NCBI RefSeq assembly: GCF_014697475.1
Contig: NZ_JACJRV010000002.1
Span: forward strand, 21,515 to 61,514
DNA: 40,000 nucleotides
Origin: Nostoc sp. FACHB-152
GTDB lineage: Bacteria > Cyanobacteriota > Cyanobacteriia > Cyanobacteriales > Nostocaceae
Direction of reading: 5' to 3'
In this document: one piece after another, positions 3,185 through 21,689 of the stretch
Layout: every line of letters starts with the position of its first letter
Numbering within the stretch: position 1 is the first letter of the stretch
The notes under the pieces: model-generated
What the model was told of the DNA's origin: nothing
What the model saw: the letters and a program-made list of their open reading frames with translations, nothing else
The model's database searches: none
Translations under genes and position numbers: made by a program

Positions 3185-3263
3185 CGGCGCGATTGGGTAA
3201 TAATTGACTTTATCTAGGATAGCGAAAAAAGAGAGTTCTCTTTCTTGCTATCCTAATTAAGTG

Positions 3264-5261
3264 CTAATGTCCTAATAGTTTATCTCGCAAATTTTTAATG
3301 CGATCGCGCAATTTTGCCGCCTCTTCAAATTCTAGTTTCTTCGCTGCATCTTTCATCTGTGCTTCTAGCTTGGCAATTAAGTCTGGAATTTCTTCCAAAG
3401 GTATTTCATTGATATGTTCATCTACGACTTTTAGCTCAGTTGCATTTAGCCGTCGAGACACTTCTAAAAATGACAAAATTGCGTTGCTTGATTTTTTAAC
3501 AATTGGTTGCGGCGTAATTCCATGCATCCGATTATGTGCCATTTGAATACCACGTCGTCTGTCTGTTTCTTCTATAGCTTTAATCATGCTGTCTGTTAAA
3601 TTATCTGCATATAAAATTGCCTGTCCTCGAATATGACGCGCGGCTCTACCAATAGTTTGAATTAAAGAACGTTCAGCGCGTAAGAAACCTTCTTTGTCTG
3701 CATCTAAAATTGCTACTAGAGAAACTTCAGGTAAATCTAAACCTTCTCGCAGCAAGTTGACCCCAACTAAAACATCAAAATTTCCCTCGCGTAATTCTTG
3801 GATAATCTCGATGCGCTGAATGGAATTAATTTCTGAATGCAAATAGCGCACGCGAATGCTGTGGTCTTGCAAATATTCGGTTAAATCTTCCGCCATGCGC
3901 TTGGTTAATGTGGTAATTAACGTTCTTTCATGACGGTCAACTCTGTCTTTAATTTCTCCCAATAAATCATCAATTTGTCCTTCGGTAGGACGTACAGATA
4001 CTTCTGGGTCAATTACGCCTGTGGGACGGATAACTTGCTCAACTATATGATTCTCAGATACTTCTAATTCCCAATTTCCTGGGGTAGCAGAAACAAAAAT
4101 ACATTGGTTTACTTTCTGCCAAAACTCCTCTGCTTTTAAAGGACGGTTATCCGCAGCACTAGGCAGACGAAATCCATGTTCAATTAATACTTTCTTCCTA
4201 GCTTGGTCGCCGTTATACATCCCCCGAATTTGCGGCACACTAACGTGAGATTCATCGATTACTAACAGCCAATCTTTAGGAAAGTAATCAATTAAACATT
4301 CCGGTGCTTCTCCGGCTTGTCTACCTGCAAGGTGACGAGAATAATTTTCTACGCCGTTACAATAACCAACTTCGCGCAGCATTTCTAAGTCGTAGCGTGT
4401 GCGCTGATCTATACGTTGCGCTTCTAGTAATTTCCCGCCTTGTTCTAGTTCTGCTTTGCGTTGTTTTAATTCAAAGGCAATATCTTCGCAAGCAATTTCT
4501 AATCGTTCTTCTGGTGTGACAAAGTGACGCGCGGGGTAAATATTTACTGCTTCTAAACTATTAATAATTTCGCCTGTTACTGGGTCAACATAGCGAATTG
4601 CGTCAATTTCATCGCCAAAAAATTCTACACGAATAATTCTATCTTCGTAAGCTGGGCCGATTTCTAAAACATCACCCCGAACGCGAAAGCGTCCTCGACC
4701 CATTTCGACATCGTTGCGGCTGTATTGGACAGATGCTAAATCGCGCAAAACTTCTCGTTGGTTCACTTCCATACCAATTTTTAAGGGGATGGCGGCTTTG
4801 AGATATTCTGCGGGAATTCCTAAACCGTAGATGCAACTGATTGATGCAACGACGATGACATCACGACGTTCAAAAAGCGATCGCGTCGCTGAGTGACGCA
4901 ACATATCAATTTCGTCGTTAATCGAAGCTGTCTTTTCTATATAAGTATCGGTGACAGGAATATACGCTTCTGGTTGATAGTAATCGTAGTAGCTGACAAA
5001 GTACTCGACTGCGTTTTTGGGAAAGAACTCGCGTAACTCATTACAAAGTTGTGCAGCCAAAGTTTTGTTATGTGCCAAAACTAAAGTTGGTTTGCCAATT
5101 TTTTCAATTACTGCTGCTACTGTAAAGGTTTTGCCGGTTCCTGTCGCTCCCAGTAAGGTTTGGTAACGATTCCCTGATTGGATGCTAGATACAAGCTGTG
5201 CGATCGCTTGTGGTTGATCGCCTGTCGGCGTAAAGGGAGCTTGAAGACAAAATTCTGTCAT
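3264..5261 (-). CDS. uvrB: Excinuclease ABC subunit B
   Basis: 665 aa. Walker [11 protein letters not shown], helicase motifs (DESH), and a C-terminal UVR domain ([13 protein letters not shown]). Confidence 0.97.
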
Positions 5262-5341
5262 ACAGTTTTGCTAGTAATACCCTATCTCATGTTAGCGATC
5301 TCACTAGACTTGTTGCAGAAGTTAGGGAAAAGCTACGCCTG

Positions 5342-5412
5342 GGGGAAAGGGTAAGAGTTTTGCTGTGGGTAAAAAGTAAAGGATTAAAAAATTGAGATTC
5401 TTCCCTTTCCCC
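5342..5412. repeat. Inverted repeat GGGGAAAGGGTAAGA / TCTTCCCTTTCCCC
   Basis: Arms at 5342-5356 and 5399-5412 are complementary (one mismatch) and separated by about 42 nt. Lies in the uvrB upstream intergenic region. Confidence 0.5.
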
Positions 5413-5632
5413 ATTTCCTTTTCTCCCTATACCTGTCGAGCTGGCGTTGCCAAATAACTATATAGAAATATTTCTTTACAATTCTTAATTGTTTTAATTT
5501 ACTTATGTATAAGTTTTGAAGATACTTATATCTATGCAAGGTTTTTTAAGGGTAGACTTTAATATACCGGAAAAAATCTATTTTTTCCTAAAATATTGTA
5601 AAGTTCATTAAAGCAACCAGAGGTGTTAGTTT

Positions 5633-6094
5633 ATGAGCATTAGCAGCACTGGCAAACCAGCTAGTACTCGTCAAAGACGTGCCAAGCTAAAGGGGGAATC
5701 TACAGTGGAAGTTGAAAATAATCAAGGTCAAGCTTTAAATAACGATCAAGCCGCACAAGGTAGCGATAAATCAGAAGAATCTGGAAAAATTGTGATTGCA
5801 GGTGTACGTCCTATTGCTGGTAGTGATTTGCAAGTTGCTGACACAGTATCAATTGCGGGTATACGTCCTATCTCAGCTAGTAATTTAGAAGTAGTAGAGA
5901 CAATCAACGTGATGGGGATTCGTCCCATTGGTGCTAACACCATCAATATTGTTGACAGTATTAACCTTTCTGGTATACGTCCAATTTCTTCCAGTACGTT
6001 AGTAATTTCTGATAGCTACTCTATCATGGGGAACCGTCCAGTAGCATCAAATTTTACTGATGATTCTGATTTACTTATGGGTTTTATCGACTAA
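5633..6094 (+). CDS. Repeat protein with five exact 19-residue periods (G-[VIN]-R-P-[IV] core), function unknown
   Basis: 153 aa. A basic/polar N-terminus is followed by Gly at residues 57, 76, 95, 114 and 133, each starting G-x-R-P-[IV]-x-[GAS]-[SN]-x-[LI]-x-[VI]. Followed by a good terminator. Confidence 0.65.
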   Translation: MSISSTGKPASTRQRRAKLKGESTVEVENNQGQALNNDQAAQGSDKSEESGKIVIAGVRPIAGSDLQVADTVSIAGIRPISASNLEVVETINVMGIRPIGANTINIVDSINLSGIRPISSSTLVISDSYSIMGNRPVASNFTDDSDLLMGFID

Positions 6095-6122
6095 ACCAAA
6101 AAAGCATCTCCATAATCCTGAT

Positions 6123-6153
6123 TAACCCGGTTTATTGATGAAATCGGGTTTTT
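6123..6153 (+). terminator. Rho-independent terminator
   Basis: AACCCGGTTT-attgatg-AAATCGGGTT (10-bp stem with one G-U pair) followed by TTTTT. Lies 29 nt after the stop at 6094. Confidence 0.75.
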
Positions 6154-6310
6154 TAATTATTTAATTAAAATGAAAAATTAGATATTGTGTTCAAGAATTT
6201 TGTTTTTATGAATACAACTTTAAATTAAGCTAACAGTTTATTACCAATTATTCTGAGGAATAGGATATAGAAACCCGTGTAGGAGTCGTAAAAAATAGAG
6301 ATAAGTAAAC

Positions 6311-6367
6311 GTAGACGCGTAAGCGGCTTGCCGCAGGCTACCGCCAAGAACGCCAAGAACGCAAAGG
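6311..6367. repeat. Dispersed repeat (TAGACGCG..AGCGGCTT.CCGCAGG family)
   Basis: gtagacgcgtaagcggcttgccgcaggctaccgccaagaacgccaagaacgcaaagg. Related to 28712-28757 (atagacgcggtagcggcttcccgcagg...) and to aaggacgctaaggacacgaag at about 28840-28860. Confidence 0.5.
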
Positions 6368-6584
6368 TAAGAAAGAAGAAAGAGATAGATATAAATTTCA
6401 CAAATGATTTAGGACTGCTATATTAGCTTGATTGTATTATCTTTCTTTGTATAGAGACAGCTAATATATCCTGTGGCGGAAGGCAAGAATAAAAATCTTA
6501 AGATAAGTTGTAATAGTAAGAATCAAGAAATCAAAGCAATTAATAGCTTTGAAACTTAGATTTATATAAGATTAGGAGAATAAA

Positions 6585-6767
6585 ATGAGCATAGAAGATC
6601 GTGCAAAAGCTACTGGCAAAAATATTGAAGGTAAAGCTCAAGAAGCTCTGGGTAATATAACTGGCGATCCAGAAGATAAAGCTGAAGGTAAAGCCAAACA
6701 AGCTGAAAGCGAAGTTCGCCAAGGCATAGAAGATGTGAAAGATTCAGTAAAGAAAAAGATTGACTAA
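6585..6767 (+). CDS. CsbD-family general stress protein
   Basis: 60 aa. KATGKNIEGKAQEALGNITGDPEDKAEGKAKQAE is the CsbD signature. AGGAG lies 8 nt upstream of the ATG. Confidence 0.85.
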   Translation: MSIEDRAKATGKNIEGKAQEALGNITGDPEDKAEGKAKQAESEVRQGIEDVKDSVKKKID

Positions 6768-7066
6768 GTAATAATTGTTTAGTCTCTAAACCTAAAAGGA
6801 AATAATCTTGATTTGGTGAAACAGTCAATCTCGAAATTTGACTTACATCCTTGATTTACTCTTTTTCTTTCGGAATTAAGCTAGGCTAACAGATAACACA
6901 GGTTCTGACTGTAGAGACGTGAAATATCGCGCCTCTACATTTCTAGTTTACTTAGCTAGATAAATAATGAATTTTGAGCTTAAAGACAACTTATATTTTA
7001 TTTAACTAGCTAAGAAATACAAAGAATTTAAAGTATTTAAATTGTTGCAGATTTAGGAGCGAAAAA

Positions 7067-7507
7067 ATGACGCTTTTCGAGCAGATTCGTAAAGTTGCGA
7101 TCGCCTTTGTTTTAATTGTGGTGCTAACTGTAACTACTGCTTGTGGTGGTGCTACAGTCAGCCAAGCTGACCGCACAAATACCCCGTCTTTAATTGGCAG
7201 AGATGTAGCTTATAGCCAATTAGAAAGAGGTAATACTCCAGGCGGACAAACTTTTGGTGACTGGGTTGTGCAAACATCCCAAGGATTAATTAAGGATGCC
7301 TTTGTTCGAGATAACAACAAATTAGGCGTAGTAATTTCTCGTGATGTTCGTCCTACTGAAGTTAAACCTTTAGCTAAATCATTAGTTCAAGGCTTTCACA
7401 AAAACTTCCCTAATCAAGATTTAACTGTTTTGGTTTACGGCCCTGACAAAAAGTTAATTTTGACAACTCAATACGATGTTCAGTCTCAGCAGGTGAAGTA
7501 TAGCTAA
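7067..7507 (+). CDS. Putative lipoprotein, unknown function
   Basis: 146 aa. N-terminal hydrophobic signal ending LTVTTAC-GG (lipobox-like Cys). AGGAG upstream. Confidence 0.6.
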   Translation: MTLFEQIRKVAIAFVLIVVLTVTTACGGATVSQADRTNTPSLIGRDVAYSQLERGNTPGGQTFGDWVVQTSQGLIKDAFVRDNNKLGVVISRDVRPTEVKPLAKSLVQGFHKNFPNQDLTVLVYGPDKKLILTTQYDVQSQQVKYS

Positions 7508-7650
7508 TTAGGGAATAGGGAACAGGTAATAGGCAATAAAAAATAGCCTTTTTGAAACCACTGAGTGTCCTTGTTCTAATTTATCCGGCTATTGCTATAC
7601 CAGTTTGATGAAATTGAAAACTAAAGATTCAAGAAATTAGGAGAAAAACA

Positions 7651-8172
7651 GTGTCTACTAGTGAAGAATACAGACGGCAAGTAATGAAAGATTTAGCTCA
7701 AGGTGATGTTGAATCATTGGATGATCCATCAACTGATGCAGCTACTCAATACGAGAATTTTGACGATTTTGCTCAAAGAACAACAACAGATCAACGTCGC
7801 CAGTTATTTGGTCGATCTATTCATCCAGACCGCATTCCTTCCAGCCAAATGGAACCGGAATTACAAAAAGCGATCGCACAAATTAAACCTAATGAGCGAG
7901 ATGATGTAGCGCGCGCCTTTTTCAAACACTTGAAAGGTAGAGGCTTAGATGAGCGTAACTTAGAGCAACAATTAGGTCTTTCCACTCATCACGCCAGCCG
8001 GATGAATGCTGATGATGTGAGCAAACTTGCATCCTTTGCTTATCACAACCACCCAGATGTTTTCCGCGAAGTGTTAGCAGAGCAACCAGGTATTATCAAG
8101 TTCCTCAGCAACCCTGTAGTCGCAGGAATTCTTGGGATAGCAGCTGCTAAGTGGTTAGGTAGCCGTAAATAA
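7651..8172 (+). CDS. Hypothetical protein with C-terminal hydrophobic anchor
   Basis: 173 aa, GTG start preceded by AGGAGA. C-terminal VVAGILGIAAAKWLGSRK. A strong terminator follows. Confidence 0.55.
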   Translation: MSTSEEYRRQVMKDLAQGDVESLDDPSTDAATQYENFDDFAQRTTTDQRRQLFGRSIHPDRIPSSQMEPELQKAIAQIKPNERDDVARAFFKHLKGRGLDERNLEQQLGLSTHHASRMNADDVSKLASFAYHNHPDVFREVLAEQPGIIKFLSNPVVAGILGIAAAKWLGSRK

Positions 8173-8200: not shown

Positions 8201-8227
8201 AAGGTGGGAAAGACCCACCTTTTTTTA
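8201..8227 (+). terminator. Rho-independent terminator
   Basis: AAGGTGGG-aaaga-CCCACCTT (perfect 8-bp stem) followed by a T6-7 run. Confidence 0.85.
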
Positions 8228-8275
8228 TGTGATTCGATTAATATCGTGTTCGGGAAGCGGTGTATCATTAAAGCC

Positions 8276-8310
8276 GCAGGGGAGCAGGGGTGCAAGGGTG
8301 CAGGGGAGAG
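8276..8310 (+). repeat. G-rich octamer tandem repeat (GCAGGGGW x4)
   Basis: GCAGGGGA GCAGGGGT GCAAGGGT GCAGGGGA GAG, giving four G3-4 tracts spaced by 4-5 nt. Confidence 0.7.
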
Positions 8311-8362
8311 TGTTTTTACGGTTTCTGCACAGATACACTCAACTATAACTAATCATCCAAAC

Positions 8363-8635
8363 CTCATTAAAGAAGCTCAAAGGTTCATTAAAGGAGTTCC
8401 AAGCCTCATTAATGAAGCTCAAAAGTTCATTAAAGGAGTTCTGAACCTCATTAAAGAAGCTCAAAGGTTCATTAAAGGAGTTCCAAGCCTCATTAAAGAA
8501 GCTCAAAGGTTCATTAAAGGAGTTCAAAGGCTCATTAAAGAAGCTCAAAGGTTCATTAAAGGAGTTCAAAGGCTCATTAAAGGAGTTCAAAGGCTCATTA
8601 AAGAGGCTCAAATACTCATTAATGAGGATTAATTG
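8363..8635. repeat. 13 x 21-bp strictly phased tandem array (two alternating unit types)
   Basis: Units start at 8363 + 21n with no indels. Type A is CTCATTAAAGAAGCTCAAAGG; type B is TTCATTAAAGGAGTTC[C/A]AAG[C/G]. The last units decay (CTCATTAATGAGGATTAATTG). Confidence 0.9.
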
Positions 8636-8636
8636 C

Positions 8637-9113
8637 TCATGAATCAGAAGCAACTTTATTTGGTCTACCTTTGATAGCTTTGAAGCGTTCGCCTAATTGT
8701 TCAGCTAGAGTTTTTAAGCCGGGAGTAGTTTTTGATGCTGTCTTAACGTAATTATAGACAGTTAAACTGCTGGACATAGCTTCACTACCGACTGCCAGTA
8801 AAGTATCATCTACTTGTTCAGTGAGTTGCCGCATGGAAATTAATACTTCAGTAAGTGCGATCGCTAACTGATAATCTTGTACCAACTCTTCAACGTTAAA
8901 AGTAGCCGGCAGAATATTACGGTTAGACTGAGCAGCAGTAGCACTATTATTTACAAAAGCCAGACTTTTATCACCCATCTTGACCATCTTGCGCCGTTCT
9001 TCCGCGCTGAGAGTAACCAGAAAAGGGAGTTTTGCATGGATAGTCTGGAGTGAAGCTTTAATTTCTTGGATATCTGCTGGCGAAAGGGAAGCGGTAATAT
9101 TTTGATAGGACAT
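8637..9113 (-). CDS. Conserved hypothetical protein (158 aa)
   Basis: Helical-looking ORF with an LPFLVTLSAEERRKMVKMGDKSLAFV motif that I recognise only as a recurrent hypothetical family. Last gene of the minus-strand string. Confidence 0.6.
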   Translation of the reverse strand: MSYQNITASLSPADIQEIKASLQTIHAKLPFLVTLSAEERRKMVKMGDKSLAFVNNSATAAQSNRNILPATFNVEELVQDYQLAIALTEVLISMRQLTEQVDDTLLAVGSEAMSSSLTVYNYVKTASKTTPGLKTLAEQLGERFKAIKGRPNKVASDS

Positions 9114-9203
9114 AGTAGAATCACCAATGTAACGCGAGGGTTAAGTAGCAATATTTGCTAAGTATATAATTCCCATTGGTGAGCGTAAAAGCACACAATT
9201 ACC

Positions 9204-9647
9204 CTACTTATTTATCCGTTTTAACGCCGATGCTGAGGGATACTGACCAGATAAAATCAAAGCTTGTCTTTCAATTACTCTTTCATCGACATTAAAATCG
9301 AAAATGCGGGCTGTTACTTCTCCAATTTCTGTTAGCGGTTGAATCAAAGCCTCATCTAACCAAAAATGCTCTCCCCAAAAGTCTCGACGGGGGTTAAAAA
9401 ATCGTACAAGTTCACCAGTCTGCCAATTAATTGAACCTAAATCCGTCCCTTTTTGCAAGTTGCAGAATATACAGGCATAGCAAAGATTATCTGCTGTTGT
9501 TGCACCGCCGTGTTTCACACTGATGATATGGTCAACTTGACAACCTGATGACCTATCGGCTTCAGAAACAAGACAATATTCGCAAATATGATCAGCGCGA
9601 CGAGCAACTAAACGCCGCAGTTCTGCATTAATTTAAGGAATAGACAC
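9204..9647 (-). pseudogene. HNH endonuclease interrupted by an early in-frame TAA
   Basis: The minus frame reads (GTG 9647) VSIP-TAA(9633-9635)-INAELRRLVARRADHICEYCLVSEADRSSGCQVDHIISVKHGGATTADNLCYACIFCNLQKG... This is a full HNH/CxxC core. The track ORF (9204-9518) starts after the first catalytic His. Confidence 0.6.
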
Positions 9648-9656
9648 TGGAAAAAC

Positions 9657-9911
9657 TTACTCCGCCTTAAGGTATTGATGTGCTTTTGCTTTTGCTAAGG
9701 TCATAATATGTTCTAACGTGAGGAAATGATCTAACTCCTTCTTTTCCTCTGGTGTGAGTTTGCCCATTTTGTGTTGATAAACCAAATATTCTAAACGCTC
9801 TTTTGTACTATCTGAAAGCTGAGACTTCACAACACTTTCGGGAGTAGTCCCAGCCGCAATAAAGTCAACAATTTCGTCGTAGACTTTGGCTGTATTTATG
9901 GATGTAGTCAT
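9657..9911 (-). CDS. Small helical protein (84 aa), usual upstream partner of this HNH type
   Basis: The ORF ends 9 nt before the HNH GTG. The LTPEEKKELDHFLTLEHIMTLAKAKA motif is common in small cyanobacterial ORFs. Confidence 0.55.
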   Translation of the reverse strand: MTTSINTAKVYDEIVDFIAAGTTPESVVKSQLSDSTKERLEYLVYQHKMGKLTPEEKKELDHFLTLEHIMTLAKAKAHQYLKAE

Positions 9912-9932
9912 GAATTTACCTGTTTAATTTTA

Positions 9933-10157
9933 TTATGCTACTTTTAATGGCTTGCCTAAAGTTTGAGGCTCTGGTAAAGTTTCGCCATCTGCCAAAGCAG
10001 ATTCAATGAGCATTTCTAAAACTTCCTGAGCATTTTTTAAAGCTTCCTCGTAAGAATCCCCGTGTGTACAAGGCTGCATTACATTAGTAAATTCAGGCAA
10101 CAAAACCACATAACATTTGTCTTCATCTGACCATTGAATAATAATTGTGTATTTCAT
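9933..10157 (-). CDS. hicB: HicB-family antitoxin
   Basis: 74 aa. MKYTIIIQWSDEDKCYVVLLPEF...GDSYEEALKNAQEVLEMLIE is the HicB N-terminal (UPF0150) fold signature. ATGA overlap with hicA. Confidence 0.8.
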   Translation of the reverse strand: MKYTIIIQWSDEDKCYVVLLPEFTNVMQPCTHGDSYEEALKNAQEVLEMLIESALADGETLPEPQTLGKPLKVA

Positions 10158-10378
10158 TCTTCTGTCTCCTCCGCTTTTTCTATTTTCTCTAATTCTGCAA
10201 GTGCTTCATTAACTTGCTTTTCTAAATAAGGTTTAGCATCGCTACCATCTTTACCAGCGATGATGATAGCTTGAGGCAATAGCGGATGTATCCATTTACT
10301 ATGACTACCTTTGGCAGGTTGATAAGTAAACCCTGCTTGCAGCAATAACCTTTTGAGTTCTCTAATTTTCTTGGGCAT
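10154..10378 (-). CDS. hicA: HicA-family mRNA-interferase toxin
   Basis: 74 aa. IRELKRLLLQAGFTYQPAKGSHSKWIHP...IAGKDGSDAKPYLEKQV matches the HicA pattern (GSH motif). Starts 15 nt after the NACHT gene stop. Confidence 0.8.
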   Translation of the reverse strand: MPKKIRELKRLLLQAGFTYQPAKGSHSKWIHPLLPQAIIIAGKDGSDAKPYLEKQVNEALAELEKIEKAEETEE

Positions 10379-10393
10379 AACCTCAGTTTATGT

Positions 10394-13300
10394 TCACCCT
10401 TGCCACCGTTTCAACTGTTTTTGAGCATATTCCCTTACTTGCTCATCTGGGTCATTTTCGGCGCGATCGCGCAACAGTGGTAAAGTTTTGGGATGCTGAG
10501 GAAATTGCTTAAAAATTATCTCCAATGCAACGCGCCGAGGGTTTGGGTTATACGATTCATGTTTACCTTCAAAGAGGTCATCTTTAGCACAGTTGTAGTA
10601 AACATCAAACAGTTCAGACTGATATTTGTAAACTTGAGCTAATTGTTGCACTGCTGTCCCTCGCACATCAGAATCTTCATCCGCACTCGCCAGTTGGCGC
10701 AACAGAGTTTTGGTATCGGGGTCTTCCTTGTAAACTTGAGCTAATTGTTGCACTGCTGTCGCTTGCACAACCGAATCTTCATCCGCACTCGCCAGTTGGT
10801 GCAGGAGAGTTTTGGTGTCGGGGTCTTCCTTGTAAACTTGAGCTAATTGTTCCACTGCTGTCTGTTGCACAACCGAATCTTTATCCGCACTCGCCAGTTG
10901 GCGCAACAGAGTTTTGGTATCGGGGTCTTCCTTGTAAACTTGAGCTAATTGTTGCACTGCTGTCCTTCGCACATAGGAATTTTTATCTGCATTCACCAGT
11001 TCTTGTAGAAAAGTTTTGGTATCGGGGTCATCCTTGTAAGCTTGAGCTAATTGTCGCACTGCTGTCATTTGCACAATCGAATCTTTATCCGCACTCGCCA
11101 GTTGACACAGGAGAGTTTTGGTGTCGGGGTCATCCTTGTAAGCTTGAGCTAATTGTCGCACTGCTGTCGCTTGCACAATCGAATCTTTATCCGCACTCAC
11201 CAGTTGACACAGGAGAGTTTTGGTGTCGGGGTCATCCTTGTAAGCTTGAGCTAATTGTCGCACTGCTATCATTTGTACAACCGAATCTTTATCTGCACTC
11301 ACCCGTTCGTGCAGCAGAGTTTTAGTATCGGGGTCATCTTTGTAAACTTGAGCTAGTTGTTGCACTGCTGTCTGTCGAACATAGGAATCTTTATCCGCAC
11401 TCGCCAGTTCGCGCAGGAGAGTTTTGGTATCAGGGTCTTCCTTGTAAACTTGAGCTAATTGTTCCACTGCTGTCCATCGCACATAGGAATCTTCATCCGC
11501 ACTCGCCAGTTGACGCAACAGAGTTTTGGTGTCGGGGTCATCTTTGTAAACTTGAGCTAATTGTTCCACTGCTGTATCTCGCACATCCGAATCTTTATTC
11601 GCAGTCGCCCATTGGCGCAGCAGAGTTTTAGCTGAATCTTGCCAAGTCGAAGTAATTGCAATAACTGCTTGAGTGCGAATTTCTCGAACTAACTGAGTTT
11701 CTTTGTGATTCCGCCCAGAGTCGTAATAATACCAAAGGTCATATTGAGTTAAGTTTTTTAATCTGTTGAGTAACTTATCAACTGACTTAATTACTGAGCA
11801 ATTTCTTACTTCTGTAAGACACTTAGCTGCTAAAAACAGATTAATAAACTTTTCCTCTTCACCATCCAGCGACATTAAATAATCAATAATGTCGCCAACA
11901 AATTCTTCCTCAATCATCCCAGCAATTAGCAGTAATACTTCATGCCACTTTTCATCTTGCCAGTGTTTGCCAAAAACATCTGTTTTTATTGCTTCTATAG
12001 TTAAACCATTTGCAGTTCCTCTTTTCTCAAACTGCTTAACAAACTCCCATGCACAAAAATACTCTAAAAATGTCCGATGCACAAAAGCATAATAATCAGC
12101 ACCCAAGAAACATAAAATAAAGTTGCGCTCCCTTAATTGCTCAATCAGCAAGCGTGCTATTTTTATTTCTGAGGTAACTCTCCGTTCTCGTAAATAGCTA
12201 ATTAAAGTTTCTTCTAACTCATCTTTACTAATTAGGTTCCCTGCTAAACCTGTCTCTGCTGCCTGCATTTTATAAGCAACCTGGCGTAACATTGCCTGTT
12301 TATCTTTCAAGTCAATTGTGTAAGGATCTATATCAGAAAATCTGAGTAATTTTGCTTCTACATCCCATTGATGTAATAGTACTCGTGATGCTTGTTCGTA
12401 AAGCGTAACTCTATCTCTAGGCAATTCCTGATTACGATTGAGAATTGCCATCATCGTCAACAGCAGAGGATTTCCTGCTAGTTCAGTAATAGCTTTGGAA
12501 TTCTCAATTCCTCTTTGCAGCCTTTCCCGTTTTCTAATTTTATCCGCTTCATCACTAAAAGTTAATTCATGCCAACGGTGAATAAAATTTTGAATTTGTT
12601 CTGAGTCCAAATCTTGCAATTCAAAATGGTGAAACTCAGCATCGCGTAAGCGTTGCATTTTATAGCCAATTTTACGAGAAGTTACAATCACCTGGACATT
12701 AGGATAGTCATTAGTAAAGCGATGAATATCAGTAATCACATCCTCTCGCTTACCATGATCAAATACTTCATCTAAACCATCAAACATCACGACAGCGTTA
12801 CCAGCTTTTAACTGTTCGTGAATTTTATGTTGATTTAAGTGGGTAACTACTCCGCTACATTTATGGAAAAATTCTAAAAAATTATGACATTCTTTATCCT
12901 CGCGTCGTCGCATATAAGTGCGTAACTCAATTAGCAACGGTATTGGTAATGAGATAACATTATCTACTGGTGATTCTGCCCAATTCAAAGTTAAATATTG
13001 CAATAATGTAGACTTACCCGAACCAGGATCACCCAAAATTACAATATATTTATAAGTCGTCTTGTCATTAACAACATCTAATACAGAACGTATCGGTTGC
13101 TCTAAATAAACTCGTTTATAACGTTCTAATTCCTCTGCTTGAATTTCTGCTTCTATTTGGTCACTCTCCCGCAATCTTTTTAAATGTTCTTTTGGCAGTT
13201 CATGAACTTGGTGCAAAACTTGATGCACCTCCCGCACATTTTGAGCAATAAACATTCGCCATAACTTCAGTTCGTTATAGGCATAACCGCTAGTGTCTAA

Positions 13301-13930
13301 ACTATCTAACTTCAGATTGCCGTAGCGTTCGCGGATGGATTCTTGATATTGTTGTAAATCAAACTCAGGAATAATACCCGCTATTTCTTTTGTATATCCC
13401 TTGGTTTGTTCTAGATTTTTAGAATCAAAAGTTTCTCTGAGTTCTGGTAATTCATGAATAATATTTTTAACCTTCTGCACATATTTCTTACCTACCCGTT
13501 TCCAATTAAAATCATCTGGTAACGGGTAGGATGAATTAAGCTCATACCAAATTTCTTCTAATCTTTTTGTGTCTACAGTCTGACAGTCATTCTGAAAGGC
13601 ATTACCTAAAATTTCTTTAACTTGTGAGTTCTTTAAAAATTGCTTTAGTCTTGGGGTATATTTTTTAATTTCATCTTCAGGAAGTTCACTGTCATCTAAA
13701 TCCTGCTGCATTAGTTCTAAATATTCTGTAACTGCCATAACAGCAGCTTTCTGAAGCGGTTCTTGCTTGAAACGTTCAGTTAGAGCAATATTAAAAGTAT
13801 TTTTGAAAAAATCTTTAGTATAGTCTTTGACGAAATCTTTGACAAACTCTTCGTTGATGATTGTTTTCACCAAAAAGCCTGCTGTTTTTGTTGCTATCCA
13901 AGTGGCAACCCATTCAAATATCATACTCAT
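10394..13930 (-). CDS. STAND NTPase: unknown N-terminal domain + NACHT + 10 HEAT-like repeats
   Basis: 1178 aa. Walker A GDPGSGKST (aa 300-308, nt about 13007-13033), Walker B VVMFDGLDEV. The helical NACHT-associated region is followed by ten 34-aa units D-TKTLL-x3-[AV]SAD-x-DS-x-V-x3-AV-x-QLAQ-x-YK-x-DP. The first 25 aa are hydrophobic (MSMIFEWVATWIATKTAGFLVKTII). Confidence 0.9.
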   Translation of the reverse strand: MSMIFEWVATWIATKTAGFLVKTIINEEFVKDFVKDYTKDFFKNTFNIALTERFKQEPLQKAAVMAVTEYLELMQQDLDDSELPEDEIKKYTPRLKQFLKNSQVKEILGNAFQNDCQTVDTKRLEEIWYELNSSYPLPDDFNWKRVGKKYVQKVKNIIHELPELRETFDSKNLEQTKGYTKEIAGIIPEFDLQQYQESIRERYGNLKLDSLDTSGYAYNELKLWRMFIAQNVREVHQVLHQVHELPKEHLKRLRESDQIEAEIQAEELERYKRVYLEQPIRSVLDVVNDKTTYKYIVILGDPGSGKSTLLQYLTLNWAESPVDNVISLPIPLLIELRTYMRRREDKECHNFLEFFHKCSGVVTHLNQHKIHEQLKAGNAVVMFDGLDEVFDHGKREDVITDIHRFTNDYPNVQVIVTSRKIGYKMQRLRDAEFHHFELQDLDSEQIQNFIHRWHELTFSDEADKIRKRERLQRGIENSKAITELAGNPLLLTMMAILNRNQELPRDRVTLYEQASRVLLHQWDVEAKLLRFSDIDPYTIDLKDKQAMLRQVAYKMQAAETGLAGNLISKDELEETLISYLRERRVTSEIKIARLLIEQLRERNFILCFLGADYYAFVHRTFLEYFCAWEFVKQFEKRGTANGLTIEAIKTDVFGKHWQDEKWHEVLLLIAGMIEEEFVGDIIDYLMSLDGEEEKFINLFLAAKCLTEVRNCSVIKSVDKLLNRLKNLTQYDLWYYYDSGRNHKETQLVREIRTQAVIAITSTWQDSAKTLLRQWATANKDSDVRDTAVEQLAQVYKDDPDTKTLLRQLASADEDSYVRWTAVEQLAQVYKEDPDTKTLLRELASADKDSYVRQTAVQQLAQVYKDDPDTKTLLHERVSADKDSVVQMIAVRQLAQAYKDDPDTKTLLCQLVSADKDSIVQATAVRQLAQAYKDDPDTKTLLCQLASADKDSIVQMTAVRQLAQAYKDDPDTKTFLQELVNADKNSYVRRTAVQQLAQVYKEDPDTKTLLRQLASADKDSVVQQTAVEQLAQVYKEDPDTKTLLHQLASADEDSVVQATAVQQLAQVYKEDPDTKTLLRQLASADEDSDVRGTAVQQLAQVYKYQSELFDVYYNCAKDDLFEGKHESYNPNPRRVALEIIFKQFPQHPKTLPLLRDRAENDPDEQVREYAQKQLKRWQG
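10627..11646 (-). repeat. 10 x 102-bp in-frame tandem repeat inside the NACHT gene
   Basis: Units begin (forward strand) TGTAA[A/G]CTTGAGCTA[A/G]TTG at 10627, 10729, 10831, 10933, 11035, 11137, 11239, 11341, 11443 and 11545. The period is an exact 102 nt. Confidence 0.9.
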
Positions 13931-14050
13931 GTCTGCTTATACGTTAATTACGAGTATATCCACCAGTTTTAGTAGCTATTGCCTAACTTAGGATAAGTTA
14001 ATCTCAGTGATAAAATTGCTACAGTTTCCGCTTATGCTACAACAACCAGA

Positions 14051-14854
14051 GTGAAAACAGACAGCATCTTTTATCGCCTATTTCAAGAATTACCCAGCAT
14101 TTTCTTTGAATTAATTGGCAACCCTCCCGAAACTGCAAATACCTATCAATTTTCTTCAGTTGAAATCAAACAAACAGCCTTTAGAATTGATGGTGTATTT
14201 CTGCCAACCCAAGATGAACAAAGCCTAATTTATTTTGTCGAAGTTCAATTTCAACCTGACTCAGATATTTACTTGCGCCTGTTGTCAGAAATCTTTTTGT
14301 ACTTACGCCAAAATAAACGCCCAAACTCTTGGCGAGGCGTGGTGATTTATCCTAGCCGAAACATAGATATTGGTGAACGCCAAGATTGCTATGAGTTTTT
14401 TAATAGCGATCGCATCAGTATAATCTACTTAGATGAATTAGCTGAAATTGCATCACTGCCCATAGGTATCGCTACCATCAAATTAATAATTGAAGATAAA
14501 GAGACAGCCATTTCCACCGCCAAACAATTAATCAACCGCACCAAGCAAGCAGTAAATTCGCAACTTCCACAAAAACAACTACTAGAATTAATAGAGACAA
14601 TCCTAGTTTACAAATTGCCTAACATCAGTCGAGAGGAGATAGAAGCAATGTTTGGGTTAAGTGAGTTAAAGCAAACACGAGTTTATCAAGAAGCTGAACA
14701 AGAAGGTAAAGAGAAAGGACGTTTAGAAGCAAAATTAGATGCTGTACCTAAACTGTTAGCATTGGGTTTGACTGTGGAACAGATAGCACAGGCTTTAGAT
14801 TTAGATGTTGCACAAGTTCAGCAAGCAGCAAAGCAGACATCACCAGAGCAGTAA
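14051..14854 (+). CDS. Rpn-family recombination-promoting nuclease / putative transposase (DUF2887/DUF4351 type)
   Basis: 267 aa, GTG start. MKTDSIFYRLFQELPSIFFELIG...EIKQTAFRIDGVF...YFVEVQFQ (PD-(D/E)XK-like core), with a C-terminal QTRVYQEAEQEGKEKG...LGLTVEQIAQALDL tail. Confidence 0.75.
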   Translation: MKTDSIFYRLFQELPSIFFELIGNPPETANTYQFSSVEIKQTAFRIDGVFLPTQDEQSLIYFVEVQFQPDSDIYLRLLSEIFLYLRQNKRPNSWRGVVIYPSRNIDIGERQDCYEFFNSDRISIIYLDELAEIASLPIGIATIKLIIEDKETAISTAKQLINRTKQAVNSQLPQKQLLELIETILVYKLPNISREEIEAMFGLSELKQTRVYQEAEQEGKEKGRLEAKLDAVPKLLALGLTVEQIAQALDLDVAQVQQAAKQTSPEQ

Positions 14855-14866
14855 AAAAATATTTCT

Positions 14867-15592
14867 ATGGTTCTACAAATTCAACCCAGTCAAAAAAAAC
14901 CTAATGTCAGTTGGGAACCACTTCCAGCCGACTTTATTTTATCTGACGACCCAGTGGAAAATATTCAGCAACCAACTCTCGCCGCAGCACTTACCGATGC
15001 TTTGGGTGCTAACGGACGCATCCAACCCCAAATGCTTATAGGCTCTAATTTTGGTCTAGTCGCTACAATTAACAAAAAAATTGTCGTCAAAGCACCTGAC
15101 TGGTTTTACGTCCCGCAAGTGCAACCTCTAGCCGCCGATGTTATTCGTCGTAGCTACACCCCCAATTTAGAAGGTGATGCTGTGGCTGTGGTAATGGAAT
15201 TTCTCTCAGAAACCGAAGGTGGAGAATTATCTATTCGCTCAACGCCACCCTACGGTAAACTTTATTTTTACGAAAAAATTCTCCAGGTTCCAACTTATGT
15301 CACTTACGACCCATACGTACCAAGTTTAGAAGTACGCATCTGGCAAAATGAACAATATACTTTACAGTCAGCAGATGCAAATGGCCGTTTTTGGATTCCT
15401 GAATTAGAGTTATTTCTGGGAATTTGGCAAGGTGAAAGACTCTGCCAAACTATAAACTGGCTGAGGTGGTGGGATAGCGAAGGAAATCTGCTGTTGTGGA
15501 GTAGTGAACAAGCCCAACAAGAACGCCAACGTGCTGAAAGATTAGCAGCTAAGTTACGCGAACTCGGTGTTGACCCTGATGCGATCGCCTAA
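14867..15592 (+). CDS. Uma2-family (DUF820) endonuclease
   Basis: 241 aa. APDWFYVP...AVVMEFLSET...YEKILQVPTYVTYDP, with the common C-terminal ERQRAERLAAKLRELGVDPD tail. Confidence 0.8.
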   Translation: MVLQIQPSQKKPNVSWEPLPADFILSDDPVENIQQPTLAAALTDALGANGRIQPQMLIGSNFGLVATINKKIVVKAPDWFYVPQVQPLAADVIRRSYTPNLEGDAVAVVMEFLSETEGGELSIRSTPPYGKLYFYEKILQVPTYVTYDPYVPSLEVRIWQNEQYTLQSADANGRFWIPELELFLGIWQGERLCQTINWLRWWDSEGNLLLWSSEQAQQERQRAERLAAKLRELGVDPDAIA

Positions 15593-15661
15593 CCAAAATG
15601 AAGACAATAATTAACTATACTTACCCGAAACAGTAGCAATTCACTGTTTGCTGAAAACGAG

Positions 15662-16552
15662 ATGCGGCTGAAGACAGGGAAACAGCACCCAAATTCCATG
15701 AAACAGCAAAAAAATCAATTCAGCCATCTCACAGCAATAGACAGAACTTACCTCTCATTTCCCGCAAAGTTTTTACTAAATCAAAACTTTCTGCAAGGTA
15801 AAATCCTAGATTTTGGTTGTGGTCTTGGTAATGATGTTAAATTATTACGTCAAAAAGGCTTTGATATCACAGGTTATGATCCCTATTACTTTCCCCAATA
15901 TCCTACTGATAAATTTGACACTATAATTTGCTTTTATGTTTTAAATGTCTTATTCCCTGAAGAACAAGCTAATGTGCTGATGGCAGTAGCACATTTATTA
16001 AAACCAGGTGGTAAAGCTTATTTTACTGTCAGAAGGGATATCAAAAAAGAAGGCTTTCGAGAACACTATGTCCATAAAAAGCCTACATACCAATGTAATG
16101 TTAAACTTCCATTTTCTTCAATCTTTCTAGATGAGAGTCGAGAAATATACCAGTATGTTCATTACAATCGTCAGCGCAATTCCTCGAATTACTGTATATT
16201 TTGCAACCCCCACAAAAATCTCAAATTATTAACAGAATCAGCAACAGCATACGCTATATTTGACGGCTATCCTATCAGTAAAGGTCATATTTTAGTCATT
16301 CCTAAACGTCATGTAAGTAATTATTTTGAACTCCCATTCAAAGAACAATCAGCTTGTTGGTTGATGGTGAACAAAGTACAAGAAATTCTCAAAGCAGAAT
16401 TTGCCCCCGATGGCTTTAATGTCGGGATGAACATTAACCGAGAAGCTGGGCAAAATATTATGCACGCCAGCATTCATATCATTCCCCGTTACAAAGGCGA
16501 CACGCCCTGTGCGAAAAGTGGCATCAGAACTGTCATTCCTAAACAGAAATAG
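15662..16552 (+). CDS. Fusion protein: class I SAM-dependent methyltransferase + HIT-family domain
   Basis: 296 aa, one continuous frame. N-terminal half has ILDFGCGLGNDV (motif I) and LLKPGGKAYF. C-terminal half has CIFCNP...FDGYPISKGHILVIPKRH...GQNIMHASIHIIPRYKGD (HIT fold; triad reads H-A-S-I-H). Alternative start at ATG 15698. Confidence 0.75.
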   Translation: MRLKTGKQHPNSMKQQKNQFSHLTAIDRTYLSFPAKFLLNQNFLQGKILDFGCGLGNDVKLLRQKGFDITGYDPYYFPQYPTDKFDTIICFYVLNVLFPEEQANVLMAVAHLLKPGGKAYFTVRRDIKKEGFREHYVHKKPTYQCNVKLPFSSIFLDESREIYQYVHYNRQRNSSNYCIFCNPHKNLKLLTESATAYAIFDGYPISKGHILVIPKRHVSNYFELPFKEQSACWLMVNKVQEILKAEFAPDGFNVGMNINREAGQNIMHASIHIIPRYKGDTPCAKSGIRTVIPKQK

Positions 16553-16564
16553 TTATAGCAACTG

Positions 16565-17515
16565 TCACCTGTCACCTGCTATGGCGATCGCAATTTTACC
16601 AACCGCTCGTTCACTCTCACTATAAGCATGAGCCGCAGCTAATTCTTGTAGTGGAAAAGTCCGGTCAATGACTGTGCGAATTTTACCAGCCTCAATCAAG
16701 TCTTTTAAATAAATCAAGTCTTGGCTATTTGGTCTTTCAACTACTAATTTCGCTTTTTGACCAGGTAAAAACGTTGTTAAAAAACCCTGTATTAAAACTT
16801 CTGGGCTAGGCAAAGTTGTTACATAAACTCCATTTGGTGTCAGCACTTCTCTACAGGTAGAAAATGCTCGTTTGGCAACTGTATCAAAAATAATGTCATA
16901 CTTTATTGCCTCTGTGGTGAAATCTTGCTGCGTATAATCAACAACGCGGTCTGCGCCTAAAGATTTAACAAAATCTAGATTTTTGGTACTGCAAACTCCC
17001 GTTACTTCCGTCCCCAAAGCCTTAGCAATTTGCACTGCAAATATACCCACGCCACCCGCAGCACCATTAATCAAAACTGTCTGTCCAGCTTGCATATTTC
17101 CCAAATCACGTAAAGCTTGCAAAGCCGTCAGCGCTGCTAAAGGTACGGTGGCTGCTTCTTCATAGCTCAAATTTGTTGGTTTGAGTGCTGCCACCTTTTC
17201 TGGAATTGCTGCAAATTCTGCATAAGCACCGCCAGGAAAGCTAGTGCTACCGTAAATCGCATCTCCAGGTTGAAAGCGAGTGACTTGGGAACCAACACTT
17301 ACCACTTCTCCCGCCACATCAAACCCCAAAATCAATGGGAAACTTCTACCAGTCAACACACTCAACATACCCTTACGAATCTTCCAATCAACGGGGTTAA
17401 CGCTGCTGGCGTGGACTTTCACTAGTAATTGGTCAGGCTTGATTTGCGGCTGCTTCCAATCTTCATACTGCAAAACATCAGTGGTTCCATAGCCTCGGAT
17501 AATGACTGCCTTCAT
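16565..17515 (-). CDS. NADPH:quinone oxidoreductase / zinc-type alcohol dehydrogenase-like (MDR family)
   Basis: 316 aa. MKAVIIRGYG...VKVHASSVNPVDWK...INGAAGGVGIFAVQIAK (Rossmann GxGxxG). Confidence 0.85.
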   Translation of the reverse strand: MKAVIIRGYGTTDVLQYEDWKQPQIKPDQLLVKVHASSVNPVDWKIRKGMLSVLTGRSFPLILGFDVAGEVVSVGSQVTRFQPGDAIYGSTSFPGGAYAEFAAIPEKVAALKPTNLSYEEAATVPLAALTALQALRDLGNMQAGQTVLINGAAGGVGIFAVQIAKALGTEVTGVCSTKNLDFVKSLGADRVVDYTQQDFTTEAIKYDIIFDTVAKRAFSTCREVLTPNGVYVTTLPSPEVLIQGFLTTFLPGQKAKLVVERPNSQDLIYLKDLIEAGKIRTVIDRTFPLQELAAAHAYSESERAVGKIAIAIAGDR

Positions 17516-17923
17516 AGCATTCCTCCTGTAACCCTGTATTGCTTGCCTATATCTTTAGTGTAGCGATCGCCCCCGCTTTGTGACGTAATTAACTTTTTAT
17601 GCTATCTGTTAGATATGCTGCTTTTTGAATATCAAAATATTTTACTTTTTATATAAAAAAATTAATTTTTGCAAATTATATTCATTAATTTTGACACTTT
17701 CCAAAAACTTGAAACCTAACAATAGCATACTCTTCAGTGCGATTTAATCTCATTAAACTTAGAAAACTTAAGAAAATGTGAATTACATTTTTCTCTAAAA
17801 AAAAATGATATGTTGTATACAGAATTGAATTTCGCACGTATCTGGAGTAGTACCAACGAATCTGCTCCAGTTTTTCCCCCTAAATCCTTTAGCCGTCGAG
17901 CTTTTTGGCAGGATTTAAGGGAT

Positions 17924-18136
17924 AGTTGAGTACAACTTTTTGTATCCCCAAATCAGCAGCAAATAGCTTCAAAGCATTGCTGAGATTGGGTTATAGCTGA
18001 GTACAAAGAAATCCTAAACCCCACTCTAAAAATACAAGAACCCTGACCTAAAAATACTAGAACCCCTACCCGAAAATAAAATTTATAAACTTTTTTATAG
18101 CTCAATATCAAGGTTTGCAGATTTGAGTACAAATCT
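17924..18136 (+). promoter_or_regulatory. Candidate nifB upstream control region: 3 x TGAGTACAA and 3 x 22-bp A-tract repeats
   Basis: TGAGTACAA occurs at 17927, 17998 and 18124. The first and third copies are embedded in AGTT-GAGTAC-AACT and AGATTT-GAGTAC-AAATCT. Tandem units AACCCCACTCTAAAAATACAAG / AACCCTGACCTAAAAATACTAG / AACCCCTACCCGAAAATAAAAT lie at 18017-18082. The region is 400-600 nt upstream of nifB. No function demonstrated. Confidence 0.3.
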
Positions 18137-18531
18137 AATAAATCCAATAAATTCTATCCAAATGTAACTCCAGTCGAGCTAAAAAACGGCTGCTATAAAT
18201 CATATATCGCCAATCACCAATGACTCGAAACAAAACAACGAGCCAAAAGTGAGTGGAGGGATGAGATAGCACCATGCCTCGGTGAATCGAAGTCGCGGCT
18301 GTACACACCAACTCTACCCAAAACCTCAAAGTTGACACACACCAGCCGAAACACAAGGATTCATAGCCTGCCATCATCAGCGAAGTTGCCCAACCAGTGG
18401 CTTTGCTACAACCAAAGGATGCACTCCTGCGGGCAGTGTGATAGCCGTGACTTCCATTCTACTAGGGCAAATAAAATAGCAACAGCATCTCCCACAGTGG
18501 CAGCTTAGTCCACCGACATTTGCGAAATTCA

Positions 18532-19980
18532 ATGACACCACAGGTTACAGACTCCTCCGTTACTGAATCGACACCTACCCAAGCAAAATCTGGTGGTTGC
18601 GGATGCGACAGCAAAAGCAGCGCCACCGTGGAAATGGACGAAAAGCTCCAAGAACGTATTGCTAAACATCCCTGCTACAGCGAAGAAGCTCACCACCATT
18701 ACGCGAGAATGCACGTTGCAGTTGCACCCGCTTGCAACATTCAATGCAACTATTGCAACCGCAAATATGACTGCGCCAACGAAAGTCGCCCTGGTGTAGT
18801 GAGCGAGTTACTGACACCGGAAGAAGCAGCACACAAAGCGTTGGTTATCGCAGGCAAAATTCCCCAAATGACAGTTTTGGGAATCGCTGGCCCTGGCGAC
18901 CCTCTAGCCAACCCAGACAAAACATTCCGCACCTTTGAGTTGATTGCAGACAAAGCACCAGATATTAAGCTTTGCTTATCAACTAATGGTTTGATGCTAA
19001 CTGAATACATCGATCGCATTAAACAATTAAATATAGATCACGTTACTATCACCCTAAATACCATCGACCCAGAAATCGGCGCGCAGATTTACTCATGGGT
19101 TCACTATAAGCGCAGACGTTACAGAGGTGTTGAAGGAGCCAAAATTCTGCTCGAAAAGCAGTTAGAAGGTTTACAAGCTCTGAGAGAAGCCGATATTCTG
19201 TGCAAGGTCAACTCCGTGATGATTCCCGGAATCAACGACCAGCACCTAGTTGAAGTCAACAAAGCAATTCGTGAGCGTGGTGCATTCTTGCACAACATCA
19301 TGCCTTTGATTTCTGCACCAGAACACGGTACACACTTCGGCTTAACAGGTCAGCGAGGCCCTTCACAAAAAGAACTCAAATCAGTTCAAGACCAGTGTGC
19401 TGGCAACATGAAAATGATGCGCCACTGCCGTCAATGCCGTGCAGATGCGATTGGTTTGTTGGGTGAAGACCGCAGCCAAGAATTCACCAAAGAGAATTTC
19501 TTGGAAATGGCTCCAGAGTACGACTTCAGCAAGCGCCAAGAAGTTCACGAAGGTATTGAGAAATTTAGAGAAGAAATTAAAGCAGCCAAAGAAAAGGCAA
19601 AAGCCGGCAAGCAGCAAAGTGCCAACAATCCTAAAATCTTAGTTGCAGTGGCAACCAAAGGCGGCGGATTAGTTAACCAACACTTCGGTCATGTCAAAGA
19701 ATTCCAAGTTTACGAAGTTGATGGTAGCGAAGTTCGTTTCGTTAGTCACCGCAAGATTGATCAATATTGTCAAGGTGGATACGGTGAAGCTGCCACCGCA
19801 GAGAATATCATGAAGACAATTGCAGATTGTAAAGCAGTATTGGTTTCTAAGATTGGCAACTGTCCCAAAGAAAAATTGCACGAAGCTGGCATACAGACCG
19901 TTGAAGCTTACGACGTAATCGAGAAAGTTGCTTTAGAGTTTTACGAACAGTACGTCAAAGAATTAGGGAATCGGGAATAG
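18532..19980 (+). CDS. nifB: Nitrogenase FeMo-cofactor biosynthesis radical-SAM protein NifB (with C-terminal NifX-like domain)
   Basis: [14 protein letters not shown] radical-SAM motif. The C-terminal roughly 110 aa resembles NifX/NafY. ATG 18532 is preferred over the track's TTG at 18520. Confidence 0.97.
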
Positions 19981-20107: not shown

Positions 20108-20128
20108 TCATTCGCAAGGAGAATAATC

Positions 20129-20479: not shown

Positions 20480-20485
20480 ATAAGA

Positions 20486-21688: not shown

Positions 21689-21689
21689 T

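Follow-up and report, generated by a model that had tools for sequence, protein, structure and literature searches.

A stretch of 40,000 nucleotides from the cyanobacterium Nostoc sp. FACHB-152 (contig NZ_JACJRV010000002.1, positions 21,515 to 61,514; hereafter the window, numbered from its first letter) carries a string of genes headed by a NACHT-type STAND NTPase gene and continued by a HicAB toxin–antitoxin (TA) pair. Six successive open reading frames (ORFs) make up the string on the minus strand at 8637-13930: the NACHT gene, hicA, hicB, an 84-aa ORF (orf84), an HNH frame and orf158 (Table 1). The gaps between them, recomputed from the coordinates, are 15, -4, 21, 9 and 90 nt, which agrees with an earlier note on this DNA. 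The same note had seen no terminator between the genes, and no terminator-like site was found on the minus strand of 8637-13930. Promoter-like hexamers occur in the string at the frequency of shuffled sequence (17 observed, 15.8 expected) and thus carry no weight for or against. Those at 10414-10385 and 9189-9161 were considered as promoters and set aside, as the scan cannot tell signal from chance. An Rfam scan of the whole window gave no match.

Table 1. Features of the NACHT-headed string and its immediate surroundings (window positions)
Feature	Position	Strand	Basis
NNH2–NACHT–HEAT STAND NTPase gene, 1178 aa, intact	10394-13930	minus	ORF; Pfam NNH2, NACHT, HEAT_2
NNH2 N-terminal helical domain, aa 29-213	13292-13846	minus	Pfam PF22734
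NACHT NTPase module, aa 295-455	12566-13048	minus	Pfam PF05729; Walker motifs in translation
HEAT sensor array, about ten near-identical 102-bp (34-aa) tandem units	10626-11629	minus	Tandem Repeats Finder (TRF)
NACHT–hicA junction, 15 nt, with GAGG Shine-Dalgarno-like motif	10379-10393	minus	Junction comparison across loci
hicA toxin gene, 74 aa, KGSH catalytic-His motif	10154-10378	minus	Pfam HicA_toxin
hicB antitoxin gene, 74 aa, 4-nt overlap with hicA	9933-10157	minus	Pfam HicB_lk_antitox
orf84, 84 aa, upstream partner of HNH in a recurrent two-gene cassette	9657-9911	minus	Cassette recurrence
HNH endonuclease frame with nonsense codon 5 at 9633-9635	9204-9647	minus	Pfam HNH; orthologue alignment
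orf158, conserved cyanobacterial protein predicted all-helical, independent gene	8637-9113	minus	Homologue search; AlphaFold2 (AF2)
21-bp tandem array at the orf158 3' end	8356-8622	not assigned	TRF

The earlier note described the first gene as a STAND NTPase with Walker motifs and C-terminal sensor-like repeats, and this description holds. The translation has a 100% identical match in Nostoc sp. FACHB-152. The 1178-aa translation contains Walker A (GDPGSGKST) and Walker B (FDGLDEV), and the NACHT module matches Pfam PF05729 above the cut-off (E 6.5e-13). HEAT_2 is matched in seven stretches between about aa 770 and 1100 (E 7.7e-70). The N-terminal 225 aa or so, in which no motif had been recognised, match Pfam PF22734, NNH2 ('NACHT N-terminal Helical domain 2'), with E 8.9e-62 and 208.4 bits against a cut-off of 27; all 181 profile positions are covered. 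By these Pfam matches the protein has a tripartite layout of an N-terminal domain in the effector position, NACHT and C-terminal HEAT repeats. The earlier note knew of no characterised system with the architecture of the string. The lead protein does have precedents, NNH2 being already catalogued and NNH-NACHT-HEAT being named in a survey of bacterial NACHT proteins, which lists NNH domains and HEAT sensors among their architectures (Kibby et al., bioRxiv 10.1101/2022.07.19.500537). Its predicted domains make the product of the lead gene an NLR-related bacterial STAND NTPase whose architecture, NNH2–NACHT–HEAT, is of a known kind.

In an AF2 model of aa 1-285, a confident helical bundle extends over aa 1-170 (predicted local distance difference test, pLDDT, 80-96). 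Foldseek comparison of the modelled N-terminal region with PDB gave no match (best E 0.95), and a single-sequence PDB search with the NACHT protein was empty. As a helical bundle with no fold match in PDB, the NNH2 domain looks non-enzymatic in the model. The HEAT array is built of 34-aa units encoded by a 102-bp tandem repeat (9.8 copies with 86% matches in TRF). Nine in-register units have a mean DNA identity of 86%, and 59% of the non-synonymous differences between units concentrate in 6 of the 34 columns (9, 19, 21, 22, 26 and 34). The number of units differs among orthologues, with protein lengths of 964-1345 aa, and assemblies often break within the array. To judge by its units, the array has the pattern of a diversifying receptor surface.

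The surroundings of the NACHT gene were compared in 80 genome loci (of about 330) encoding 63-75% identical NACHT homologues, using searches with the window proteins and ORF clustering. Loci with at least 3.5 kb of DNA downstream of the NACHT gene, 52 in number, were taken as informative. The earlier note had allowed that hicAB and the other neighbours might almost never accompany orthologous NACHT genes. At least one member of the string was found directly downstream of NACHT on the same strand in 33 of the 52 loci, and none in the other 19. Intact copies of hicA were present in 12 loci, of hicB in 23, of orf84 in 20, of HNH in 14 and of orf158 in 23; all five downstream genes were intact in 4 (L034, L050, L071 and L072). 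Where intact, all six genes are under purifying selection (median ratio of non-synonymous to synonymous substitution rates, dN/dS, 0.11-0.22).

About 28 loci are syntenic on both sides, with nifU-nifS-fdxN-nifB and an alcohol dehydrogenase-like gene upstream and nifP-nifV-nifZ-nifT downstream, so that much of the conservation is plain vertical inheritance. Large-block synteny explains the association only in part, since the string also trails NACHT in two further contexts, serA…NACHT…panB-rbcLXS and that of the ORF families f105–f154. A neighbour-joining tree has the string in each of its three main NACHT clades, with loss in one large subclade. The 15-nt spacer between NACHT and hicA, together with its GAGG, is kept at the DNA level in 10 of 11 loci (9 nt in L028), and this conservation spans both hicA sequence types as well as the nif and serA–rbcL contexts. 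A junction conserved in several contexts indicates an old linkage derived from one ancestral arrangement. Accidental assembly of the six genes in one genome is a next to negligible explanation. Nostoc genomes abound in TA pairs and HNH genes, and HNH paralogues were found on 35 cyanobacterial plasmids, which would make a fortuitous encounter easier; the idea is nevertheless refuted by dozens of genomes from several genera, in which the same orthologues stand behind NACHT with order, strand and junction conserved. The adjacency of NACHT and the string is old and is not due to chance. That the junction of NACHT and hicAB is conserved counts as a modest new finding and a testable lead; the parts of the locus, namely a bacterial NACHT protein with NNH2, a class 1 hicAB pair and a small HNH cassette, are of known kinds.

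The distribution of the NACHT family itself permits another reading of the locus. Homologues of the 1178-aa protein number 2558 at E <= 1e-10; over aa 1-760 the best 120 of these show identities of 65% or more. Almost all Nostocales possess members of the family, with two or three paralogues per genome, and the dN/dS of the NACHT gene is 0.19. Instead of an immune receptor, the protein could be a STAND NTPase with a housekeeping or signalling role, specific to the lineage of heterocystous cyanobacteria. Its neighbours (TA pair, HNH cassette, Uma2/Rpn-like genes) would then be selfish passengers in a permissive intergenic zone. Identity of 63-75% across genera, the fixed positions (nifB–nifP/V/Z/T and serA–rbcLXS) with long-range synteny, the low dN/dS and the lack of a PADLOC model match agree with this, and the usual mobile defence genes are patchier than the NACHT family. 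It is nonetheless unlikely in view of the near-identical HEAT units, whose focused hypervariable positions and variable copy number are those of diversifying receptor arrays. Furthermore, a 58%-identical homologue is encoded on a mobilizable Gloeocapsa plasmid next to defence-type HEPN and DUF1156 genes, and phage defence has been demonstrated for several clades of bacterial NACHT proteins (Kibby et al., bioRxiv 10.1101/2022.07.19.500537).

The two genes behind NACHT are a HicAB pair, as had been proposed: both products match Pfam families, the genes overlap and HicA keeps its catalytic-His motif. HicA matches HicA_toxin (E 6e-11), and its G24-S25-H26 is invariant in 21 relatives. The HicA profile matches PDB entry 1whz (E 7e-4), with the motif aligned to KGGH of the latter; single-sequence PDB searches with HicA and HicB were empty. 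HicB matches HicB_lk_antitox (E 9e-10) over profile positions 1-63 of 123 only. It thus has the N-terminal HicB fold alone, without the C-terminal DNA-binding domain (helix-turn-helix or ribbon-helix-helix, HTH/RHH) of the classical classes 3/4. The length of 74 aa and the half-profile coverage place the pair in class 1 and not in the classical type. Class 1 comprises compact modules with a HicA of 60-85 aa and a HicB of 60-90 aa devoid of a DNA-binding domain, which are themselves experimentally untested (Gerdes, bioRxiv 10.1101/2023.12.08.570793). The window pair resembles them in its hicA-hicB order, overlap, compact sizes and HicB without a DNA-binding domain, and a relative is encoded by the Planktothrix phage PaV-LD. 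Unlike them, it begins 15 nt past a NACHT stop codon, and the 14 HicA contexts given by Gerdes mention neither NACHT nor STAND genes.

Among metagenomic relatives of hicA (53-83% identity), hicB follows in 80 of 80. A NACHT-HEAT gene lies upstream of hicAB in only 3 of the 66 relatives with enough upstream DNA (2 of the 12 closest). In 61 relatives the median upstream gap is 118 nt and the upstream ORF is divergent in 15, which argues that the class is expressed on its own. Relatives of hicA were also found on Acaryochloris plasmids and, as noted, in phage PaV-LD. Two tandem hicAB pairs or an orphan hicB occur downstream of NACHT in L011, L018, L044, L064 and L071. Two sequence types make up the tandem pairs, with roughly 85% and 66% identity to the window hicA, and the hicA of L003 contains internal stop codons. 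This pattern suggests an ancestral tandem duplication followed by differential loss. In a metagenome contig (JAESGS010000363.1, L093) the order is the reverse of that in the window: an NNH2-NACHT homologue (44% identity over aa 17-212) has two hicAB pairs on its upstream side.

The third element of the string is the orf84–HNH pair. orf84 reached the cut-off for no family in Pfam, PADLOC, NCBIfam or PHROGs scans. It is paired with HNH in at least 20 loci. On plasmid pCC7120alpha, an ORF 33% identical to orf84 (E 1e-14) lies directly upstream of an HNH paralogue with an integrase adjoining, and in L045 a second orf84–HNH pair is found 3 kb upstream of the NACHT gene on the opposite strand. The HNH motif of the window matches Pfam HNH (E 4e-10). 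The stop sign that the earlier note had marked in this frame is real: in the alignment five orthologues read TAT or TAC at codon 5, which in the window is TAA, and the reading frame is not intact. The next in-frame start (9518) falls inside the HNH motif, so that the HNH gene is most likely dead in this genome, inactivated, as the alignment indicates, by a TAT→TAA change.

The last gene, orf158, has no match in Pfam, NCBIfam, PADLOC or PHROGs. Its AF2 model is helical and finds no fold match in PDB. Its homologues form 2210 cluster representatives, with identities of 80-85% within Nostocales and a dN/dS of 0.11. As the most persistent neighbour, orf158 was considered as the true conserved partner of NACHT; this was dropped because it occurs without NACHT inside and outside Nostocales (L082, L086, L087, L171, L172), in Stenomitos, Chlorogloeopsis, Calothrix and on a metagenomic contig among glycogen and glycine-cleavage genes. 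By its sequence relatives, orf158 is an independent, strongly conserved cyanobacterial gene. In Stenomitos frigidus, which is outside Nostocales (L086, 4429-8477), orf158 and a hicAB pair (52% identical) are some 3 kb apart, and a divergent gene for a 695-aa caspase-like Peptidase_C14 stands between them in the place of NACHT.

At or just past the stop codon of orf158 begins a tandem array of a 21-bp unit, which on the orf158 strand reads TTAATGAG(C/T)CTTTGAACTCC and is present in 6-13 copies. Similar arrays were found in L085 (15029-15259), L072 (15548-15813) and L081 (8501-8641). In 17 of 34 loci the 600 bp downstream of orf158 contain at least three units, and the remainder of the roughly 1.3 Mb of fetched loci is almost free of them. 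The array is also present in loci that lack NACHT. Its RNA folds more favourably than shuffled sequences (z = -4.6). It is not of the heptamer type of short tandemly repeated repetitive (STRR) sequences. The ORFs at 8204-8632 (plus strand) and 8339-8653 (minus strand) are artefacts of the repeat.

The earlier note had proposed that NACHT and hicAB form a composite abortive-infection system. In its full form this would mean that NACHT, hicAB and perhaps orf84–HNH are one operon-encoded system in which HicA is set free by activated NACHT (through sequestration or destabilisation of HicB, for instance) or in which the NACHT promoter meters hicAB; the HicA RNase would then be the executioner alongside NNH2. 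The same strand, the 15-nt gap, the 4-nt overlap and the lack of a terminator-like site fit such a system. So do the junction kept in 10 of 11 loci with both hicA types and in both the nif and serA–rbcL contexts, the movement or duplication of the string together with the NACHT gene, the HicB devoid of a DNA-binding domain and the purifying selection on all genes. There is also a published lead in which HicAB is reported to cooperate with another immune sensor, Cas13a.

The modules are, however, lost independently of one another, which makes such an integrated system quite unlikely. Nostoc PCC 7120 and the Gloeocapsa plasmid have NACHT by itself, and in N. punctiforme and Calothrix NIES-2098 the arrangement is NACHT–orf84–HNH–orf158 with no hicAB; overall, about half of the loci have an intact, conserved NACHT gene and no hicAB, and hicA is intact in only 12 of 52. 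Conversely, hicAB remains intact where NACHT has been deleted or has lost its 5' part along with the promoter. Only the last 123 or so NACHT codons are left in Calothrix NIES-2100 (L081), with hicAB and orf158 intact. Chlorogloeopsis PCC 9212 (L172) has hicAB and orf158 beside rbcLXS and no NACHT gene. In Mastigocladopsis repens (L173) NACHT is 5'-truncated, with NNH2 and the NTPase lost, and hicA, hicB, orf84, HNH and orf158 are all intact. Losses in both directions are not the co-loss expected of an obligate five-part defence operon. The rarity of NACHT upstream of close hicAB relatives (3 of 66) and their usual possession of an upstream intergenic region of their own point the same way. The hypothesis of a shared adaptor domain (EAD) was ruled out as well, because hhalign comparison of the NNH2 profile with those of orf158, orf84, HNH, HicB and HicA revealed no domain in common (probability <=3%, with values of 0.1-1.3% for these five profiles). 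Each downstream module is autonomous. With modules occurring alone, losses in two directions and no shared adaptor, the composite system is the less likely reading.

Other small cassettes are found in the same interval elsewhere, namely a second hicAB, XisH/XisI-like pairs and DUF6887/6888-like pairs. The XisH/XisI-like pairs (ORF families f58/f35, which we take to be such from their sequence) lie between hicB and orf158 in L003 and L010 and upstream in L016, L017 and L034. In L082, L172 and L174 the corresponding place is taken by DUF6887/DUF6888 pairs.

A historical variant of the integrated system is decidedly unlikely. According to it, an ancestral NACHT–hicAB–orf84–HNH operon was a multi-effector NLR system, and the mosaic loci of today are its decay products. 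Since HicB cannot regulate itself, the expression of hicAB would be slaved to the NACHT transcript via the 15-nt junction. If this were true, NLR activation would release the HicA RNase, plus HNH where it is intact, as executioners.

The reading preferred here, to which a probability of slightly under 0.6 is given, is that of an old, vertically inherited Nostocales neighbourhood of an NLR-like gene and autonomous cassettes, and not of one integrated machine. A zone of small self-contained cassettes behind NACHT would have become fixed early in Nostocales and then been copied or rearranged together with NACHT into two or three chromosomal contexts. In the NACHT protein, near-identical HEAT units with a few hypervariable positions would, by analogy with the family, form a ligand-sensing surface. 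Binding of the ligand would free the NACHT module for nucleotide binding and oligomerisation, and oligomerisation would gather the NNH2 helical bundles as a putative non-enzymatic effector or recruitment domain. In this genome hicAB is probably read through from the NACHT transcript across the 15-nt junction. The pair orf84–HNH would be a second cassette, its HNH gene probably knocked out here, and orf158 with its own repeat array would mark the boundary of the zone. Each cassette would function and persist alone. HicAB may add an abortive-infection or addiction activity in parallel to NACHT and not under its control.

Several points weigh against this neighbourhood reading. The junction and the same-strand order have been kept since before the contexts diverged, as a selected operon would be. 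A HicB without a DNA-binding domain implies a lack of autoregulation, as would be expected if the pair depended on a promoter further upstream. The survival of hicAB after loss of NACHT can be due to addiction, so that persistence alone does not disprove coupling. The proposed path from ligand binding to oligomerisation is taken over from what is known of the family. Finally, the PADLOC scan of the NACHT protein matched no defence model and gave only noise at the P-loop level (mad8, E 1.8e-4; VakA, E 6.5e-3). The PADLOC combination of 'VakA' and 'HicA-like' (E about 5e-3) was likewise set aside as noise, and a literature search on 'VakA' turned up no paper with the term. Scans of all six proteins against PADLOC, PHROGs and NCBIfam gave no system-level match.

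Among known systems, the bacterial NACHT (bNACHT) proteins have the same tripartite layout as the window protein, with an N-terminal domain in the effector position, the NACHT NTPase and a C-terminal repeat sensor, and many NACHT paralogues are present in cyanobacteria (Kibby et al., bioRxiv 10.1101/2022.07.19.500537). In the Figure S3 legend of that study only NNH1 is named among the tested proteins, and a test of NNH2 was not found there. The window protein differs from bNACHT in belonging to a family inherited vertically at fixed loci and not patchily, and in matching no PADLOC model. With Avs/AVAST it would have in common the STAND NTPase logic of a repeat sensor, nucleotide-dependent oligomerisation and an N-terminal effector. 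It differs in belonging to the NACHT clade and in its N-terminal domain, which is helical and non-enzymatic by the model; no PADLOC Avs model matches it.

Fungal NLRs of the HET-E/NWD type combine NACHT with repeats of high internal conservation, few variable positions and variable copy number. The window protein resembles them in its NACHT module and in near-identical repeats with focused variation and variable copy number; the fungal repeats are WD40, ANK or TPR, whereas the window protein is bacterial and has HEAT units. We know of no allorecognition role for a NACHT–HEAT protein of this type. The EAD/Death-like systems, whose general idea is the recruitment of effectors to an NTPase core (Kaur et al., PMC8195603), are similar in that a STAND NTPase of a multicellular bacterium has nuclease and toxin neighbours. 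The adaptor that defines them, shared by the NTPase N-terminus and a neighbouring effector, was not found in the window by hhalign.

The wider surroundings of the string bear traces of rearrangement. The earlier note placed a 'core metabolic' cluster next to it; a cluster is present, and its label is corrected to nifB-fdxN-nifS-nifU-nifH-nifD (18520-26229). In many Nostoc genomes the NACHT string lies within the nif region, between nifB-fdxN-nifS-nifU and nifP(cysE)-nifV-nifZ-nifT (L029, L034, L072, L085 and L174 were compared with window 14051-26229). The nifP-V-Z-T side is absent from the window past orf158, and none of the tested window genes from 1-8172 has an orthologue adjoining the string in other loci, which points to a rearrangement at about 8.2-8.6 kb. 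The window NACHT groups with paralogues of the serA–rbcL context (72-75% identity), yet sits in the nif context. Furthermore, window 10394-16552 shares its upstream methyltransferase–HIT and Uma2 genes with loci of the serA–rbcL context (L001-L024, L038, L042). A nif position combined with a serA–rbcL-type NACHT suggests recombination or gene conversion between paralogous loci.

Thirteen loci share the methyltransferase–HIT fusion (15662-16552, plus strand, 296 aa) as a conserved neighbour on the upstream side. The HIT part of the fusion matches PADLOC ThsC (E 1.7e-8); for its N-terminal part there is a weak match to a dnd-related methyltransferase. Divergently upstream of NACHT (14051-15592, plus strand) are a Uma2 gene and a DUF2887/Rpn-family gene resembling those for recombination-promoting nucleases. 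DUF2887 copies flank the string on either side in L029, L036, L053, L060 and L172 and might mediate rearrangements.

The evidence as it stands favours hitch-hiking of the cassettes, which is the ordinary outcome. For the NNH2–NACHT–HEAT family a profile has been gained, with vertical inheritance, two or three paralogous loci and a diversifying HEAT array. The locus also amounts to a natural experiment, as culturable relatives have the same NLR-like gene with or without an abutting TA pair, and the pair with or without the gene: only NACHT in Nostoc PCC 7120, NACHT–orf84–HNH–orf158 in N. punctiforme, and the string with a truncated NACHT in Mastigocladopsis repens. Phage-defence biology has been little explored in cyanobacteria, and whether TA modules beside NLR-like sensors cooperate with them or merely hitch-hike becomes directly testable in these organisms.

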